Source of the DNA: Clostridiales bacterium oral taxon 876 str. F0540
Lineage (GTDB): Bacteria > Bacillota > Clostridia > Clostridiales > Clostridiaceae
Direction: 5' to 3'
Length of the DNA: 46,851 nucleotides
Assembly: GCA_000466585.1 (NCBI GenBank)
Contig: KE993461.1
Span: forward strand, 1 to 46,851
In this document: positions 4,818 through 36,921 of the stretch, in pieces
How the letters are laid out: every line of letters starts with the position of its first letter
Numbering within the stretch: the stretch's first letter is position 1
Translations under genes and position numbers: made by a program
The notes under the pieces: generated by a model
What the model saw: only the letters and a program-made list of their open reading frames with translations
Databases searched by the model: none
Told to the model about the DNA's origin: nothing

Positions 4818-5348
4818 ATGTATATTTTAAATCCCTATGAAGATACTCACCTATACAGACAAGGTTCTTATTCCAGAAGTGCGGCAGTAAATTATGCAGT
4901 AACCTATGCTTTAAAGCCTAATCCCGCCTACAGATACTTTCCGATAGTTAACGACAGCAGCGGAGATTGTGCTAATTTTATTTCCCAATGTCTTCATGCC
5001 GGCGGTGCTCCCATGACTTACAATCCAAAATACAGCTGGTTTTACAATAATAATAAATGGTCCTTATCCTGGACAGTTGCACATTCTCTTTATTGGTATC
5101 TAAAGATTAATCAGGCTAATAAATACCCTGCTGTAAAAGGCTTGGAAGTTTCAAATGCATCTATGCTTGAACTGGGCGATTTAATTCTTTTCGAAGACAA
5201 TAAAGGACTTATCTTTCACTCTGCCATTGTCACAGGTTTTTCAGGCAGCGTTCCTTTAGTGTCACATCATTCTTACGAAGCCCTAAATATTCCATATACC
5301 CGTTCCTGGGGTGCGTCAAAGTATCACTTCCTCAAGATAAGTATATAA
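4818..5348 (+). CDS. Putative amidase-domain protein (CHAP/NlpC-like, 'putative amidase domain' family).
   Basis: The GAGGAG RBS is followed by a Cys-containing motif SGDCANFISQCLHAGG that is typical of this family. Confidence 0.55.
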   Translation: MYILNPYEDTHLYRQGSYSRSAAVNYAVTYALKPNPAYRYFPIVNDSSGDCANFISQCLHAGGAPMTYNPKYSWFYNNNKWSLSWTVAHSLYWYLKINQANKYPAVKGLEVSNASMLELGDLILFEDNKGLIFHSAIVTGFSGSVPLVSHHSYEALNIPYTRSWGASKYHFLKISI

Positions 5349-5408: not shown

Positions 5409-5645
5409 TTATATACATTTAACACTATGGGTTCTAAATTCATTATTCTTTAAAAAGGCAGCAGACAATATATTTTCTTTTCTAAACCCCCTGTTTTCTT
5501 TCCTTAAGTAACAATATGCCTTAATTCTGTCTCCTGTTAATTCCAATACTCTTATGTTTCTCATCGTAATCTCATTACCCTTTAAATACACTATAGTTAT
5601 TATTAAATTCCTCTCTAGTGAAGCCTTTAAAATATGTTCAAACAT
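5409..5645 (-). CDS. Small WYL-like domain protein of about 78 aa.
   Basis: The motif AYCYLRKENRGFRKENI resembles the WYL-domain core (WYL...RxFRLDRI). The start is set at the ATG after GAAGGTGGG. Confidence 0.35.
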   Translation of the reverse strand: MFEHILKASLERNLIITIVYLKGNEITMRNIRVLELTGDRIKAYCYLRKENRGFRKENILSAAFLKNNEFRTHSVKCI

Positions 5646-5802
5646 ATTACCCACCTTCTTTCTACATAAATTTCAAAGTAAATCTGCTATTTGAGTTTCG
5701 CAAAACCTGAAGAAGCATCAGAGTTTTACTCGCTCAAATAGCGATTTACTAGTTGAAACTATATATATTATAACTCGAACTTATGTTCGTGTCAATTGTA
5801 TA

Positions 5803-5843: not shown

Positions 5844-6116
5844 TTAAGCATCATGTTTTGGATACAATTTTACTAATTCAATAGCTCTCATTATTGCTTC
5901 CATAACATCTATTTCGAGCTGTTTTCCTAATTCATCATATCTTCTGTATATTTCTCCGATATCACTTACTATATATTTTGCCGGTAGTCTGTTAAGTGCT
6001 ATTGCCTTAATATCCATAACGCATCTTTCACACTTACAAATAGTGTTTTCTTTAACAAGCATACCTGGCAGTATCTCATCGACCAATATCTCCATATAAT
6101 TTTTTAAATGATACAT
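5844..6116 (-). CDS. ComFB-family (late competence development) protein.
   Basis: The protein is 90 aa, carries the CxC..C pattern (ICKCERCVMD) and has ComFB-like helices. Confidence 0.6.
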   Translation of the reverse strand: MYHLKNYMEILVDEILPGMLVKENTICKCERCVMDIKAIALNRLPAKYIVSDIGEIYRRYDELGKQLEIDVMEAIMRAIELVKLYPKHDA

Positions 6117-14606: not shown

Positions 14607-15176
14607 ATGAATAATAACTACTGGTATAATCAAAATCAGTATTATCAAAACCCTTATCAATATTCCTACTATTACTGCAATGACTGTCCCGTAATGCAAG
14701 ACTATTACAGATCCTATGAAATGCAGCCATACTATCAGGATTATTACAGCAATAACTATGACAGCTTTTACAGATCAACGGAGGAAGATTTTATAGATAC
14801 TAGTTTTGACGAAACAAATACTCTTGAAAGAAACATTAACATAACTAAAGATATTATAGAAGACATAACTGCATCCATAAGAAAAGATTCTATGCATATA
14901 TTTAAAGACATTGAAGGCTTCATAACTGATACTAGATTAATGGACTATATGCTTGCAGCTCTCATAACATACATCTGCAATAACTACTATAAATATGAGA
15001 ATGTCATAGATGATGCAACAGACGGCTTAGTTGAAGAGTTAAGACGCAATCTTCCTTGGGTATTCGATATTCTAAAAGTATTCGGAATCACACCAAAAGT
15101 AGTAGATAAATTCTTAGATGATCTAATAAGATCAACTGTAGAAAATCTCAGAAAAAAGATGCCCGCAAATCTATAA
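14607..15176 (+). CDS. Tyrosine-rich protein, possibly a spore coat protein. The N-terminal 55 aa are Y/Q/N-rich; the rest is a structured C-terminal domain.
   Basis: The N-terminus (MNNNYWYNQNQYYQNPYQYSYYYCNDC...) is extremely Tyr-rich. A GGAGG RBS lies upstream and a terminator follows. Confidence 0.5.
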   Translation: MNNNYWYNQNQYYQNPYQYSYYYCNDCPVMQDYYRSYEMQPYYQDYYSNNYDSFYRSTEEDFIDTSFDETNTLERNINITKDIIEDITASIRKDSMHIFKDIEGFITDTRLMDYMLAALITYICNNYYKYENVIDDATDGLVEELRRNLPWVFDILKVFGITPKVVDKFLDDLIRSTVENLRKKMPANL

Positions 15177-15180
15177 TATA

Positions 15181-15216
15181 AAAATCCAGCAGTTTATTTT
15201 TAACTGCTGGATTTTC
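15181..15216. terminator. Bidirectional terminator (ATCCAGCAGTT/AACTGCTGGAT) serving both convergent genes.
   Basis: The 11-bp stem is flanked by A-runs and T-runs. Confidence 0.7.
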
Positions 15217-15222
15217 GTATTA

Positions 15223-16299
15223 TTATTTTTCTTTATTCCAATCTATATAAACAACAGCCTTAATTAAATCCTTTGGCTTATCTCTCATAACATAAAAGGC
15301 TTCTTCAAGCTTATCAAAACCATAGAATTTATGAGTAACCATCTTTCCAGGCTGAATTCTTCCATATCGAATCATATTTAGCAATCTTTCAATACGAACA
15401 CGTCCACCTTCACAAAGATCGCCTTTAATTGTTTTCCCTGCCATTCCACGTCCAAAAGCTAATGTAGGAATAGGCAGATATTCTGAACCTGTAAAGTAAT
15501 TTATATTCGCTATATTTCCTCCTCCAAAACGAGTCATAGCAACAGCCAATGCAAAAGTTTCAGCATTTCCGCCAGCAATAATTGTTGCATCTGTACCTCT
15601 TCCTGAAGTAAGTTCAAGAACTTGTTTAGCAATGTTTCCATCTTTATAGCTTATAATATCGGTTGCCCCGTATTCCTTTGCAAGAGCAACACAATCTGGG
15701 CGTGTACCTACAGCAAAAATACGAGCAGCACCACGAAGCTTTGCTCCTGCAACAGCCATAAGGCCCACAGGTCCTATACCAATTACACATACAGTATCTC
15801 CAAATTTGATATCAGCAAGTTCTGCTCCGCTAAAACCTGTTGTAACCATATCTACTGTCATAAGAGCATCATCTATAGAAATATCCTCAGGCATAAGAGC
15901 TAAGTTATTATCAGCATCATTTACCATAAATAATTCTGCAAAAACTCCATCTCTTGATCCTGAAAGTTCAAGTCCTGAAAAAGGACCCCCTGCATGCTTA
16001 AAATTATGTTCTTGAATTCCTCTTGCACGCCAATTTGGAGTACCTGCTGGAACAACAACCTTGTCCCCAACTTTAAACTCATTAACCAATTCTCCAACTT
16101 CAACTATTTCTCCAACTGCCTCATGTCCGAGAACAAACCCTGAAGGTTTTTCCGCTCCTCCTTCAAAAGCAGTATGTACATCTGAAGAACATGGCGCAAT
16201 AGCTATTGGCCTAATTATCGCATCATACGGTCCTGCAATTGGTTTTTCTTTTTCAATCCATGCAACTAAGTTTGGCTTTATTAATCCTAAGGCTTTCAT
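15223..16299 (-). CDS. adh: NADP-dependent zinc alcohol dehydrogenase of the secondary-alcohol dehydrogenase type.
   Basis: The protein is highly similar along its length to the C. beijerinckii / Thermoanaerobacter secondary ADH (PCSSDVHT, GHEAVGEIVEVG, GIGPVGLMAVAGAKLRGA). Confidence 0.85.
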   Translation of the reverse strand: MKALGLIKPNLVAWIEKEKPIAGPYDAIIRPIAIAPCSSDVHTAFEGGAEKPSGFVLGHEAVGEIVEVGELVNEFKVGDKVVVPAGTPNWRARGIQEHNFKHAGGPFSGLELSGSRDGVFAELFMVNDADNNLALMPEDISIDDALMTVDMVTTGFSGAELADIKFGDTVCVIGIGPVGLMAVAGAKLRGAARIFAVGTRPDCVALAKEYGATDIISYKDGNIAKQVLELTSGRGTDATIIAGGNAETFALAVAMTRFGGGNIANINYFTGSEYLPIPTLAFGRGMAGKTIKGDLCEGGRVRIERLLNMIRYGRIQPGKMVTHKFYGFDKLEEAFYVMRDKPKDLIKAVVYIDWNKEK

Positions 16300-16334: not shown

Positions 16335-16363
16335 ATTATAAAATTTTGTTATTTTTTTGTCAA
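16335..16363 (-). promoter_or_regulatory. Consensus sigma-A promoter for adh: TTGACA, a 17-nt spacer, then TATAAT (minus strand).
   Basis: The hexamers and the spacing match the consensus exactly. Confidence 0.5.
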
Positions 16364-17411: not shown

Positions 17412-17930
17412 CTATTTTCCCATTTCATTTATTATTTTTATTTTAAAAGCAGAATTTAACGCTTTATAGACTATACATATTACTATGACTTGTATTGGAA
17501 GCATAACTGCATTAGATATTACTCGCGTTGGAAGTATTGCTAGTACTGCCTTGTTGAGTAGTATGTGGAGCCATAAAGTATTCAGGCCTAAATCTATAAA
17601 TAATTTAATAATTAATACTGATATACTTACTCTGACAGTACTTAAAGTTTTTTTATATAAAAAAATTCCATAAATTGCACCAGTTAAAAAAGCACTTAAA
17701 GTAAAGCCCGGAAAATAAGCTGCCTTTGGAAAAAGCATCATTCCTATTAAATCTGCTATAGCTGCAGTGGTTCCTCCTACTAACGGACCAAACATAATGG
17801 CTGCTAATGCTATAGGCAGAAAATCAAAGCTTATTCTAACTATTGGAGTTTGTATTGATAAAAATCTTGTAAGTACAATATCAATAGCAATAAATAATCC
17901 CATAAGAATAATTTTTCTTGTTTTTTTCAT
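17412..17930 (-). CDS. folT: Folate ECF-transporter substrate-specific (S) component.
   Basis: The membrane protein is about 170 aa, with a typical N-terminus for the family (KIILMGLFIAIDIVLTRFLSIQTP). A THF riboswitch lies immediately upstream. Confidence 0.7.
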   Translation of the reverse strand: MKKTRKIILMGLFIAIDIVLTRFLSIQTPIVRISFDFLPIALAAIMFGPLVGGTTAAIADLIGMMLFPKAAYFPGFTLSAFLTGAIYGIFLYKKTLSTVRVSISVLIIKLFIDLGLNTLWLHILLNKAVLAILPTRVISNAVMLPIQVIVICIVYKALNSAFKIKIINEMGK

Positions 17931-17990
17931 AAATAAATTCCCCCTCTTTTATAAATGGCATAATGCCACAAAAGAAGGAGAACTCCTTTT

Positions 17991-18096
17991 TTGTGGCAGC
18001 GGAATGCGATAAATGCACCGCAGCTTTTTAAAGCTTTCGTCTAGCGGCAACTTCCCGTCCAACTAGCACTTGACGCACATTTATCTACTCTGCCCT
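17991..18096 (-). promoter_or_regulatory. THF (tetrahydrofolate) riboswitch in the folT leader.
   Basis: The minus-strand sequence GGGCAGAGUAGAUAAAUGUGCGUCAAGUG...GACGAAAGC...GCGGUGCAUUUAUCGCAUUCCGCUGCC matches the conserved blocks of the folT motif (AGAGUAG, GCGUnAAGUG, ACGAAGC, GCGGUG...GCAUCCGCU). Confidence 0.8.
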
Positions 18097-18149
18097 ATTA
18101 CTATCTATTTTAGTTAATTTTGTAATTTAAATCAATAACCATATTTCTA

Positions 18150-18578
18150 TTAAATTCTTCTTATGTCTTTTTGGAGACATAGATATACAGTAATTACTGT
18201 GAAAATTACTGAGGTTATAAGAAGCAGCATATTCATCGGCATTAAATCTGCAGCAGCTCCTCCCAAAAGCATTCGTAAAGGCATGGCAGCCATAATAAGC
18301 GTATTAAGAAGAGAAGAAACTTTACCTAATATTTCATTTGGAACAAGTCTTTGCACAACAACCCCAATAGGAATATTTAGTATTGAGTTTGCCATACCAA
18401 TAAATAAATATATTGCAATAAATAAGATTACAACCATTTTACTTGACAGTATTCCTTTAGAACCTGCGAGCATTACAAAGTAAATTGAAAATATAAGTAC
18501 ACTAAAAGCTTTTAAATTTATTATTGTCAACAGAATATAAAAAATATATTTATTCAACAACTTCATTATAATCGGCAT
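18150..18578 (-). pseudogene. C-terminal fragment (about 4 TM segments) of an MFS transporter; probable gene remnant.
   Basis: The MFS C-terminal signature (VVQRLVPNEILGKVSSLLNT...LLGGAAADL) is present, but the N-terminal 250 or more aa are missing. The unrelated upstream ORF overlaps it in another frame. Confidence 0.45.
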
Positions 18579-18912
18579 TTATTATTTTATCCTTACTATA
18601 GAATGCATCTGGATCTCCATATATTTTTACTCTTGTTTTAACAAACTTTTCTCCTAATCTCTTTCCGCTTACAAAATCTTCATCTGAAGCAGCCTGTATA
18701 ATGCTTCCAGCTAACTTTGCGGACATCTTTGTTGCTTTTCCAGCAGCTTTTCCAATAACTTTTCCTGTTTTTACAATATTTTTGCCCAAATCTTTCCTGC
18801 CCGCCAGTATTACAATGCCGCCAACAATAGCACCTGTTAACAATAAATTATATTGAAGTATTGAGCCAATCAATTGTCCTGTACCTCTTACCACTGTTGA
18901 TTTATTCATCAT
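18550..18912 (-). CDS. Hypothetical membrane-anchored protein (one N-terminal TM segment and a Lys-rich tail; YtxH/DUF948-like).
   Basis: An AAAGGCAGGA RBS and a TM helix (LLLTGAIVGGIVILAG) are present. Confidence 0.4.
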   Translation of the reverse strand: MMNKSTVVRGTGQLIGSILQYNLLLTGAIVGGIVILAGRKDLGKNIVKTGKVIGKAAGKATKMSAKLAGSIIQAASDEDFVSGKRLGEKFVKTRVKIYGDPDAFYSKDKIINADYNEVVE

Positions 18913-35202: not shown

Positions 35203-36561
35203 TTAAGCTTCTATAGTTTCACTTGAGCTTACTCTTTTTTTATTTTTTGCTGCCATATATGCATAAACCGGTATTCCAATTACAGCTAAAAGTATACCAT
35301 ACTCTATAGCTTCAAGCCCTGAACCATATATTGCCCATCCAGCATATATCAATGCAGCAACAGGAACAAAAAATGTTTTTACTGAAGATAAAAGTGTCAA
35401 TTTCTTTCCTTCTTTTAAAGCATATTTTATTTCTGCAGCTGCAGTAGTTGCATAAACAGGAAGGAATGATAAAGTTGCCAGAAGTACTGTAAAATTAAAA
35501 GCAGAAGCTAAAGTTTTATTGTTTGCATAGTTCATCACCAACAAAAGATTTACAAGTATTGAACCAATTATTAATGCAACATGAGGTGTCTTGTATTTTT
35601 CATGTGTCTTACTGAAAAAGCTAGGGAACATTCCATCTTCACCTGCCGCAAAAGCTACTCTTGCGGTTGATAAAAGCCATCCTATTGTTGTTCCAAGCAC
35701 GCTTACAACTACACCTAAGGTTATAAATTGAACCATTCCGCTTCCAAAGTATTGTGATAATATATCTGCAATTGGTGCAGTACTCTTCTCAAGAGTTGCC
35801 TGAGGCATAGCTCCCATTGCAAAGAAATTAATTGCCATATACATTATAGCTGCGATTAGTATTCCGATTATTGTGCTTCTTCCAACATTCTTTTCTGGAT
35901 TTCTTATTTCACCTGCAGCAATTGATGAACTTTCAAGTCCGACAAAGGACCATAATGTTAATGTCGCAGCTACAGGTAAAGTCTCCATACCTTTTCCCTC
36001 AGGAAACAATGGAACCAAGTTGCCTGAATTAAAGTGCATTGCCGCTGCAATTATGAAAAATAAAAATAATAAAATTTCAAATATAGTTATAGCAGTTTGA
36101 ATTTTACCCGCCATTTTAACACCAAGTATATTAATAATAGTAAATATCCATAACACTGCACTTGCAAATAAAAATGCACCTAAATTGCTGTTTCCTATGG
36201 CCGGAACAAGCTTTCCTGCATAGCTTGCTACAGCAATAACAACTGCTGCATTTCCAATCCATGATCCATTCCAATATAACCATGCATTCATAAACCCTGC
36301 AAAATCTCCAAAGGCTGTTTTAGAATATTCGTATGGTCCACCTGTCTTTGGAAGTCTTCTGCTTAATTTTGCAAAGCATAGGGCTAATAGTATTGATCCA
36401 AAGGCTGTAAGCATCCAAGCTCCTATTGTAGCTCCCGGGCCTGCCTTCCCGGCTAATGTTGCAGGCAGCATAAATATTCCTGAGCCCATCATATTTCCTG
36501 TAACTAAGGCTGTAGCTATAACTAAGCCTAATTCTTTTTTAAGTTTCGTATTTTGTTCCAT
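35203..36561 (-). CDS. APC-superfamily amino-acid permease, inferred to be lysine-specific (YvsH/LysP-like) because of the upstream L-box.
   Basis: The protein has 12 TM segments. The N-terminus (GLVIATALVTGNMMGSGIFMLPATLA) is typical of the basic amino acid/polyamine antiporter family. A lysine riboswitch sits in its leader. Confidence 0.75.
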   Translation of the reverse strand: MEQNTKLKKELGLVIATALVTGNMMGSGIFMLPATLAGKAGPGATIGAWMLTAFGSILLALCFAKLSRRLPKTGGPYEYSKTAFGDFAGFMNAWLYWNGSWIGNAAVVIAVASYAGKLVPAIGNSNLGAFLFASAVLWIFTIINILGVKMAGKIQTAITIFEILLFLFFIIAAAMHFNSGNLVPLFPEGKGMETLPVAATLTLWSFVGLESSSIAAGEIRNPEKNVGRSTIIGILIAAIMYMAINFFAMGAMPQATLEKSTAPIADILSQYFGSGMVQFITLGVVVSVLGTTIGWLLSTARVAFAAGEDGMFPSFFSKTHEKYKTPHVALIIGSILVNLLLVMNYANNKTLASAFNFTVLLATLSFLPVYATTAAAEIKYALKEGKKLTLLSSVKTFFVPVAALIYAGWAIYGSGLEAIEYGILLAVIGIPVYAYMAAKNKKRVSSSETIEA

Positions 36562-36611: not shown

Positions 36612-36852
36612 AACGTAAAGAAAGCCTTGAGCATACACTCAAGGCTTTTAAGCACGCAAATAAACAATCATCGTGTTAAATCCACTGAATGATAGCTCTC
36701 CACAAGAAACTTGTGACAGTTTTGCATATATTCTATGCAGAACCAGCTGTACAATCTTAAAGCATCGATTGTACGCTTCGGCGATTTTTCCTTTCCTTTT
36801 GCTTCTTTGTGCTTTCCTCCGCAAAAGTACTATTAAAAACCGCGCCTCTATC
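36612..36852 (-). promoter_or_regulatory. Lysine riboswitch (L-box) with an intrinsic terminator (36621-36648).
   Basis: The minus-strand blocks match the L-box: UAGAGGCGCGG..., GGAGGAAAG, UCGCCGAAGCG, GCUGGUUCUGCAUAGAAUAUAUGCAAAACUGUCACAAG and UGGAGAGCUAUC. Compare the B. subtilis lysC leader (AGAGGUGC, CGCCGAAGC, GCUGGCCGUGCAUUGAAUAAAUGUAAGGCUGUCAAG, GGAGGGCUAUC). Confidence 0.85.
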
Positions 36853-36921
36853 CTAGCTATTTACTTTTATCTTACTTGTATTATTATGCAATAAAACTTT
36901 AGTTTAGTCAAGAGTTAAATC

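Follow-up and report, generated by a model that had tools for sequence, protein, structure and literature searches.

How did the gene for an error-prone DNA polymerase come to stand directly behind a folate transporter gene and its tetrahydrofolate (THF) riboswitch, and is the polymerase now made according to the THF supply? The question is raised by a 46,851-nt stretch of Clostridiales bacterium oral taxon 876 str. F0540 (GCA_000466585.1, contig KE993461.1, forward-strand positions 1 to 46,851), which we call the window and whose numbering is used throughout; in it a THF-I riboswitch, folT and dinB, which encodes DNA polymerase IV (Pol IV), follow one another on the minus strand. From the arrangement of signals described below, it is very probable that folT and dinB are transcribed as a single unit behind the riboswitch, and we judge it on balance probable that, as the distal gene of a folT-dinB transcript, dinB has its expression materially gated by THF. 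The simplest explanation of the arrangement is a local rearrangement of which it is a by-product, tolerated or maintained since, and not a designed regulatory link.

By sequence comparison, the folT-dinB arrangement is confined to four closely related lineages (DinB 93-94% identical), referred to below as the clade. Besides the window and a Logan contig identical to it (L081), these are Clostridium sp. YIM B02515 (L082, GCA_016765585.1; FolT 95% identical), the group L086-88 (one NCBI metagenome-assembled genome and two ENA contigs; DinB 93% identical) and L093 (a JGI contig; FolT 97% and DinB 94% identical).

The riboswitch-folT cassette and its expression platform

The components of the unit are all ordinary members of known families, and it is the composition of the operon, a THF unit with a captured translesion polymerase, that is new. 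THF-I riboswitches are reported to control folT, folC and folE in Firmicutes (PMC9881143), and the window unit has in common with the usual THF-I-folT units a full-length aptamer, an OFF platform and folT directly 3' of it. It differs from them in that folT lacks a 3' terminator and is followed directly, with no spacer, by a polymerase gene. An earlier note on this DNA had recognised a THF riboswitch upstream of folT, with dinB behind folT, and profile searches bear out both: the aptamer matches its covariance model over the full length and is followed on the same strand by a folate-family folT and an intact dinB (Table 1). FolT also matches the Pfam family ECF_trnsprt (58.8 bits against a cut-off of 30.7). 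Its TIGR04518 match stops at residue 158, and the tail made up by its last ~9 codons is poorly conserved; we rejected the idea that these nine residues are a translated former spacer, since most FolT relatives have ~171 aa and an unconserved tail. DinB carries the polymerase core and the little-finger domain (PF00817, IMS, 179 bits; PF11799, IMS_C, 92.5 bits). Its translation contains HVDMDAFF and SIDEAYLD, which we take to be the DinB catalytic motifs with acidic residues, and its C-terminus, ...EQISMF, resembles the clamp motif QL[SD]LF.

The site TTGATT-17-TAAAAT, which alignment finds unchanged in the clade members L082 and L086, is likely to be the promoter of the riboswitch-folT-dinB unit, consensus resemblance being no proof of function. 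The expression platform comprises the 64 nt from the end of the aptamer to the folT ATG on the same strand. Folding predicts for it mutually exclusive structures tied to P1, which is a textbook OFF design in which the anti-terminator competes both with P1 and with a U-tailed hairpin that buries the Shine-Dalgarno (SD) sequence. The minimum-energy fold of the leader (-56.7 kcal/mol, z = -3.8) consists of the aptamer and the hairpin at 17935..17985, which buries the folT SD (~17939..17946) ahead of UUUAUUUAU and the folT AUG; in a hairpin-plus-U scan the same hairpin scores -16.8 kcal/mol with a U-rich tail. The 5' arm of the anti-terminator and the 3' strand of P1 have four nucleotides (UGCC) in common, and the anti-terminator also occupies the anti-SD strand of the sequestor hairpin. 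When the nascent transcript reaches only as far as the 3' arm of the anti-terminator, its minimum-energy fold includes the anti-terminator; forced in the full leader, the structure comes to -51.5 kcal/mol, ~5 kcal/mol above the minimum. The platform can be aligned with the folT leaders of more distant, ancestral-type loci (L083-85), in which the anti-terminator has compensatory changes (AAGGA/UCCUU versus AGAGG/CCUCU, read from the alignment) and the same second hairpin is followed by an unbroken U7 (~4990..5000 of these loci). Homologous aptamers in L082-L088 score 86-92 bits.

In the mechanism that we propose, THF binding would leave P1 closed, the anti-terminator blocked and the U-tailed hairpin formed over the folT SD; fewer transcripts would reach folT and dinB, and folT would be translated less. 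With THF scarce, the anti-terminator would form, the SD would be free and both genes would be expressed.

Transcription and translation of dinB

Whether dinB belongs to this unit depends on the signals around it. Promoter-like sites were scored against the consensus with a threshold of at least 9/12 matches, and terminators were sought by a consensus scan and by the hairpin-plus-U scan of the whole transcript. The consensus scan found no terminator between folT and the next gene on the strand, a Zn-dependent alcohol dehydrogenase gene (adh, 15223..16299, minus). In the hairpin-plus-U scan, nothing 5' of dinB but the riboswitch hairpin itself looks like a strong terminator, and within dinB there are two weak coding-region hairpins. 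The last 400 nt of folT, whose 3' region the earlier note had named as a place to look for an internal promoter, contain no promoter-like site at the threshold. The perfect sigma-A consensus site at 16335..16363 precedes adh, and as a predicted promoter it marks where the part of the unit that depends on the riboswitch ends downstream. Between dinB and this adh promoter there is no terminator, and riboswitch-dependent read-through could add to adh transcription.

Comparison with unfused genes indicates what the junction lacks. Free-standing dinB genes of relatives (76-80% identity) have 5' intergenic regions of up to ~260 nt, with TATAAT or TGCTATAAT as -10 boxes, GGAGG or GGGGGA as SDs and mostly GTG starts; the -10 box and the strong SD are absent from the dinB of the clade. 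Ancestral-type folT loci terminate in strong terminators, the equivalent of which is lacking behind folT of the clade, and a terminator-like hairpin lies within 200 nt downstream in 46 of 64 folT loci of other lineages. Among the four fusion-bearing lineages, dinB has a dN/dS of 0.07-0.09 at dS 0.26-0.52, values that indicate a gene under strong purifying selection and functional in its fused context. Because of this selection dinB must be expressed, and the riboswitch promoter is the only evident source. The best reading is therefore that dinB is co-transcribed under THF control, since the flanking signals have been lost, no conserved internal promoter is evident and dinB is constrained. The earlier note had proposed as much, and the part of its proposal that stands is the one carried by the sequence scans and the lost flanking signals; we infer co-transcription, THF-dependent dinB levels and translational coupling alike.

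On this reading, an ordinary THF-I OFF riboswitch-folT cassette would have been joined head-to-tail to dinB in a narrow Clostridium lineage. The join would have removed the folT terminator together with the promoter and strong ribosome-binding site (RBS) of dinB, and dinB would for that reason now be the promoter-distal gene of a folT-dinB transcript, translated through termination-reinitiation at the end of folT, through a weak GGGA SD, or through both.

The earlier note had seen in the start-to-stop fusion of the two genes a significant feature. The folT TAG does directly abut the dinB ATG (...GGA AAA TAG ATG GAT AGA...), with 0 intergenic bases and both open reading frames (ORFs) in one frame, and the same holds for L082 (0 nt). 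The spacing nevertheless varies within the clade (0, +26 and -16 nt), and in L093 a 1-base deletion in an A-run has lengthened folT to 177 aa, with a 16-nt overlap as the result. We rejected the idea that selection keeps the TAG-ATG abutment for coupling, since homopolymer indels have produced three geometries in four lineages; judged from these alignments, the abutment is one of the forms that a drifting junction takes, the common frame is incidental and the significance given to the fusion point falls away. The common frame, parted only by TAG in the window and L082, might suggest that read-through yields a FolT-DinB fusion protein, but the indels put the genes in different frames in L086-88 and L093, and a polymerase tethered to a membrane protein has no obvious rationale; we give this alternative next to no chance.

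The absence of a separate RBS, likewise claimed before, holds for a strong SD, yet a weak GGGA lies 7 nt 5' of the dinB ATG (-10..-7). Its predicted pairing with the anti-SD (-5.2 kcal/mol, against -11.4 for folT and -9.4 for adh) is equalled at ~17% of random window positions. The motif is kept as GGG(A/T) across all clade members and may be what is left of the GGAGGAA SD of the free-standing relatives. With coupled stop/start pairs the junction has in common an adjacent UAG AUG, a weak downstream SD and the same strand, whereas it departs from them in its unconserved geometry and its unmasked dinB start.

Several observations weigh against a THF-dependent dinB. The U-tract of the dinB-linked clade (window 17931..17940) is interrupted, reading UUUAUUUAU here and CUUAUUUAU in L082 and L086; termination is for that reason possibly leakier in this clade, and the switch may be mainly translational. 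No hairpin masks the dinB start, whose surroundings are not significantly structured (z = -1.07), so folT-dinB coupling would not be enforced; it is possible, since termination-reinitiation would be compatible with all three junction geometries. In L086-88 the junction holds a 26-nt gap, a 1-base deletion in a T-run having ended folT at 163 aa, and this shorter FolT is more likely a derived version, given the usual length and unconserved tail of its relatives. Consensus scans may miss weak promoters in AT-rich DNA. Finally, one candidate promoter does lie inside folT, TTATCA-17-TAGAAT (17833..17861, minus; 9/12), and recurs in L086 and L093, so that with the window three of the four lineages have it.

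This last site bears on a reading in which dinB is transcribed mainly from an unrecognised promoter inside folT, its level being largely independent of the riboswitch and the adjacency without regulatory consequence. The candidate in the 5' part of folT would suit such a reading, as would the wealth of -10-like hexamers in AT-rich Clostridium DNA and the reliable expression that a gene kept by selection would need even when folate is plentiful. However, promoter-like sites are about as frequent as chance predicts (18 sites in 4.2 kb, with 18.8 expected), the candidate falls below the threshold in L082, the last 400 nt of folT are free of scoring sites, and the perfect or near-perfect -10 boxes of free-standing relatives are absent from the window. 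We consider a riboswitch-independent dinB unlikely, though well worth bearing in mind, and retain co-transcription with folT.

Table 1 Predicted features of the unit and of its surroundings, in window coordinates
Feature	Position	Strand	Evidence
Lysine riboswitch (RF00168)	36685..36858	-	125.8 bits; 5' of a 452-aa ORF (35203..36561, minus)
Putative unit promoter, TTGATT-17-TAAAAT	18107..18135	-	consensus scan, 9/12 matches; ~7-13 nt 5' of the aptamer
THF-I riboswitch aptamer (RF01831)	17995..18094	-	covariance model 89.4 bits against a gathering threshold of 36, E = 1.1e-19, model positions 1-99 of 99
Predicted anti-terminator/anti-sequestor hairpin, UGCCACAAAAAAGGA ... UCCUUCUUUUGUGGCA	17964..17998	-	RNA folding
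Predicted terminator/SD-sequestering hairpin, UUCUCCUUCUUUU with AAAAGAGGGGGAA	17935..17985	-	RNA folding
folT, folate-family ECF S component, 172 aa	17412..17930	-	TIGR04518, 160.4 bits against a cut-off of 60
Weak SD-like GGGA within the final folT codons	17418..17421	-	anti-SD pairing, -5.2 kcal/mol
dinB, DNA polymerase IV, 347 aa	16368..17411	-	NF010731, 570.9 bits against 362
Perfect consensus promoter (sigma-A), TTGACA-17-TATAAT	16335..16363	-	12/12 matches; starts 5 nt past the dinB stop
189-aa ORF, Tyr/Asn/Gln-rich N-terminus (MNNNYWYNQNQYYQNPYQYSYYY...)	14607..15176	+	no Pfam match

Distribution and origin of the arrangement

The earlier note had let its proposal hang on conservation of the adjacency in relatives, and here the result goes the other way: the adjacency occurs in only four lineages and is absent at DinB identities of 80% and below. 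It is missing from the two DinB relatives at 80% identity (L173 and L174), from Ca. Clostridium radicumherbarum (L089; DinB 79% identical) and from L091 and L092, in a comparison that reached down to 76% identity. It is also missing from a further 57 folT loci whose downstream sequence extends over 1.2 kb or more and, among the matches listed, from 80 DinB loci of species-representative genomes. Since the closest relative among the matches listed in that last scan, whose search pattern was the widely conserved HVDMDAFF, has 63% identity, the scan is uninformative on close relatives, which were taken instead from a large protein collection and a gene-context comparison. Three contigs carry both genes unfused; in the one examined, folT and dinB are ~18 kb apart and folT is flanked by an M17 peptidase gene and nuo genes.

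The surroundings of the two genes suggest which of them is the newcomer. The L089 dinB retains a downstream topoisomerase gene and a nearby HTH/MFS pair, and the window too keeps the dinB-topoisomerase linkage, so dinB would be roughly in its old place and the riboswitch-folT cassette would have arrived in front of it, through either a move or a duplication of folT. None of the neighbours of ancestral-type folT (M17 peptidase, nuo, nucleoside symporter) was found in the window. The part homologous to free-standing dinB begins near the start codon, and the part homologous to ancestral-type folT reaches as far as the final transmembrane segment. We tried to map the breakpoint by alignment and gave this up, since the ~30 nt between the two homologies are too short and too AT-rich to assign; a likeness of ATGGGAAAATAG ATG to TGGAGGAATTTAA GTG at the junction is suggestive only. 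That the arrangement arose once, is narrowly distributed and has a drifting junction favours a tolerated rearrangement, and its persistence under purifying selection shows only that it works.

Gene order behind folT elsewhere provides a background for this event. In the sampled folT loci, most identifiable genes in tight linkage on the 3' side of folT have to do with folate, and unrelated passengers (NmrA-like, FMN reductase, M48 peptidase) are present in other lineages. The gene for formate-tetrahydrofolate ligase, fhs, lies 12-58 nt behind folT in L119, L135 and L142, and a FolC-like Mur ligase gene lies behind folT in L157; in both cases the THF-folT unit seems to have been extended into a longer folate-related operon.

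The flanks of the locus have changed in other ways as well. On the 5' side of the riboswitch the window carries an MFS transporter remnant (18150..18578, minus) that corresponds to residues 306-427 of a 427-aa protein and is 89% identical to the intact protein of L082 and L086 (compared with L082 2307..4781), and the ArsR-type HTH gene (370 aa) that lies 5' of the MFS gene in L082 is missing. The truncated MFS gene and the missing HTH gene point to a deletion of ~2 kb in the window organism, by which a 120-aa hypothetical gene (18550..18912) comes to overlap the remnant. In L173 (3745..4000), 5' of the free-standing dinB (80%), a ~25-nt direct duplication that includes the -10 box, with GGTTATGTATAATATTATATATCAC present twice, has produced two tandem promoter-like copies. 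In L089 (3547..4880), genes for an SRAP protein (YedK-like SOS-response-associated peptidase, 162 bits) and a DsbA-like protein precede dinB on the same strand, and the SRAP gene beside dinB suggests that the older dinB neighbourhood was DNA-damage related. On the far side of adh, the 189-aa ORF of Table 1 is conserved beside adh in L082 and shortened in L086; behind it lies a bidirectional terminator (15181..15215).

SOS control and the folate connection

The E. coli dinB gene, which encodes Pol IV, is a LexA-repressed SOS gene. The window DinB belongs to the orthologous enzyme family (NF010731/NF002677 matches) and has the catalytic motifs; its gene differs in lacking a LexA box and in lying promoter-distal behind a metabolite-sensing RNA. 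Operators were sought as GAAC-N4-GTTC with at most one mismatch, a Cheo-type Firmicute pattern from which the LexA motif of the host may differ. In the whole window four such sites occur (5777, 12486, 36204 and 37801), where chance predicts 9.3; the interval from 12497 to 36204 is free of them, and none lies within ~4.9 kb of the unit, as the earlier note had said of the nearby sequence. The only exact site (GAACTTATGTTC, 5777..5788) lies between a ComFB-family gene (5844..6116, minus) and an 81-aa ORF without a Pfam match (5409..5654, minus). It was considered as a positive control and set aside as uninformative, being 123 nt 5' of that ORF, and it may reflect a small LexA-controlled gene or chance.

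The same note had regarded missing LexA control as unusual for an SOS-type gene, and this view does not hold. Within ~300 nt 5' of dinB no Cheo box with at most one mismatch occurs in L001, L003, L004, L089, L092, L173 or L174, nor does one occur in the 126 nt of sequence 5' of the L091 gene. The DinB-type Pol Y1 of B. subtilis lies outside the SOS regulon (PMC13387608). Since the closest free-standing dinB genes have no Cheo box, the fusion replaced a constitutive-looking promoter and not an SOS promoter. Pol Y1 (YqjH) is thus a Firmicute DinB-type enzyme without LexA control, like the free-standing dinB of the window's relatives; the window dinB differs from it in that a constitutive-type promoter would have been replaced by a riboswitch-gated one. 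Our literature searches found no report of riboswitch control of Pol Y1 and, in the library searched, nothing relevant on a riboswitch-dinB or folT-dinB link.

A dinB still controlled by LexA, through a divergent operator or one at the riboswitch promoter, would be in keeping with the GAACAAATGTTT boxes that more distant Clostridia-class relatives carry 5' of dinB (at -72 in L002 and -36 in L006), and with the induction of C. botulinum dinB alongside other DNA-repair genes after heat shock (PMC5413062). Set against this are the empty interval around the unit and the lack of boxes upstream of the nearest free-standing dinB genes, and we hold such control to be very improbable.

The link between THF and Pol IV might instead be adaptive, low THF switching on Pol IV together with folate uptake and independently of LexA or DNA damage. 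Folate shortage would lead to thymidylate and purine shortage and so to replication stress, under which Pol IV would raise translesion synthesis, gap-filling and mutagenesis; the benefit would lie in forestalling thymineless or nucleotide-pool replication stress, or in a larger supply of mutations under folate starvation. In E. coli, where Pol IV is used when folate or thymine is short, antifolates raise its level by way of DNA breaks and the SOS response and drive Pol IV focus formation (PMC7470938). The link there runs via DNA damage and SOS, whereas in the window, if real, it would be direct. An adaptive role would also accord with the persistence of the fusion across four lineages at dS up to ~0.5 with a strongly constrained dinB. 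Yet the arrangement has a single origin in one narrow clade, its junction geometry drifts freely by indels, folT has unrelated passengers behind it elsewhere, and the surveyed dinB and folT loci gave no independent recurrence, which is the usual sign of a selected linkage. We regard selection for the link as improbable; a neutral rearrangement fits the data as well as a functional connection between one-carbon metabolism and mutagenesis, itself plausible.

The importance of the arrangement is limited accordingly, since a single origin, a narrow distribution and a drifting junction could equally reflect an accident that was tolerated or an adaptation. Clostridium sp. YIM B02515, which shares the arrangement, is a cultured isolate. 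The locus illustrates how one rearrangement can add an unrelated gene to a riboswitch regulon while stripping that gene of its own promoter and RBS. A connection between folate and Pol IV is biologically sensible, given the antifolate response of E. coli (PMC7470938), and here it would bypass damage sensing. If dinB does track THF, the clade would offer a natural case in which the supply of an error-prone polymerase is tied to a nutrient and not to DNA damage, which would bear on how stress-induced mutagenesis may be wired.

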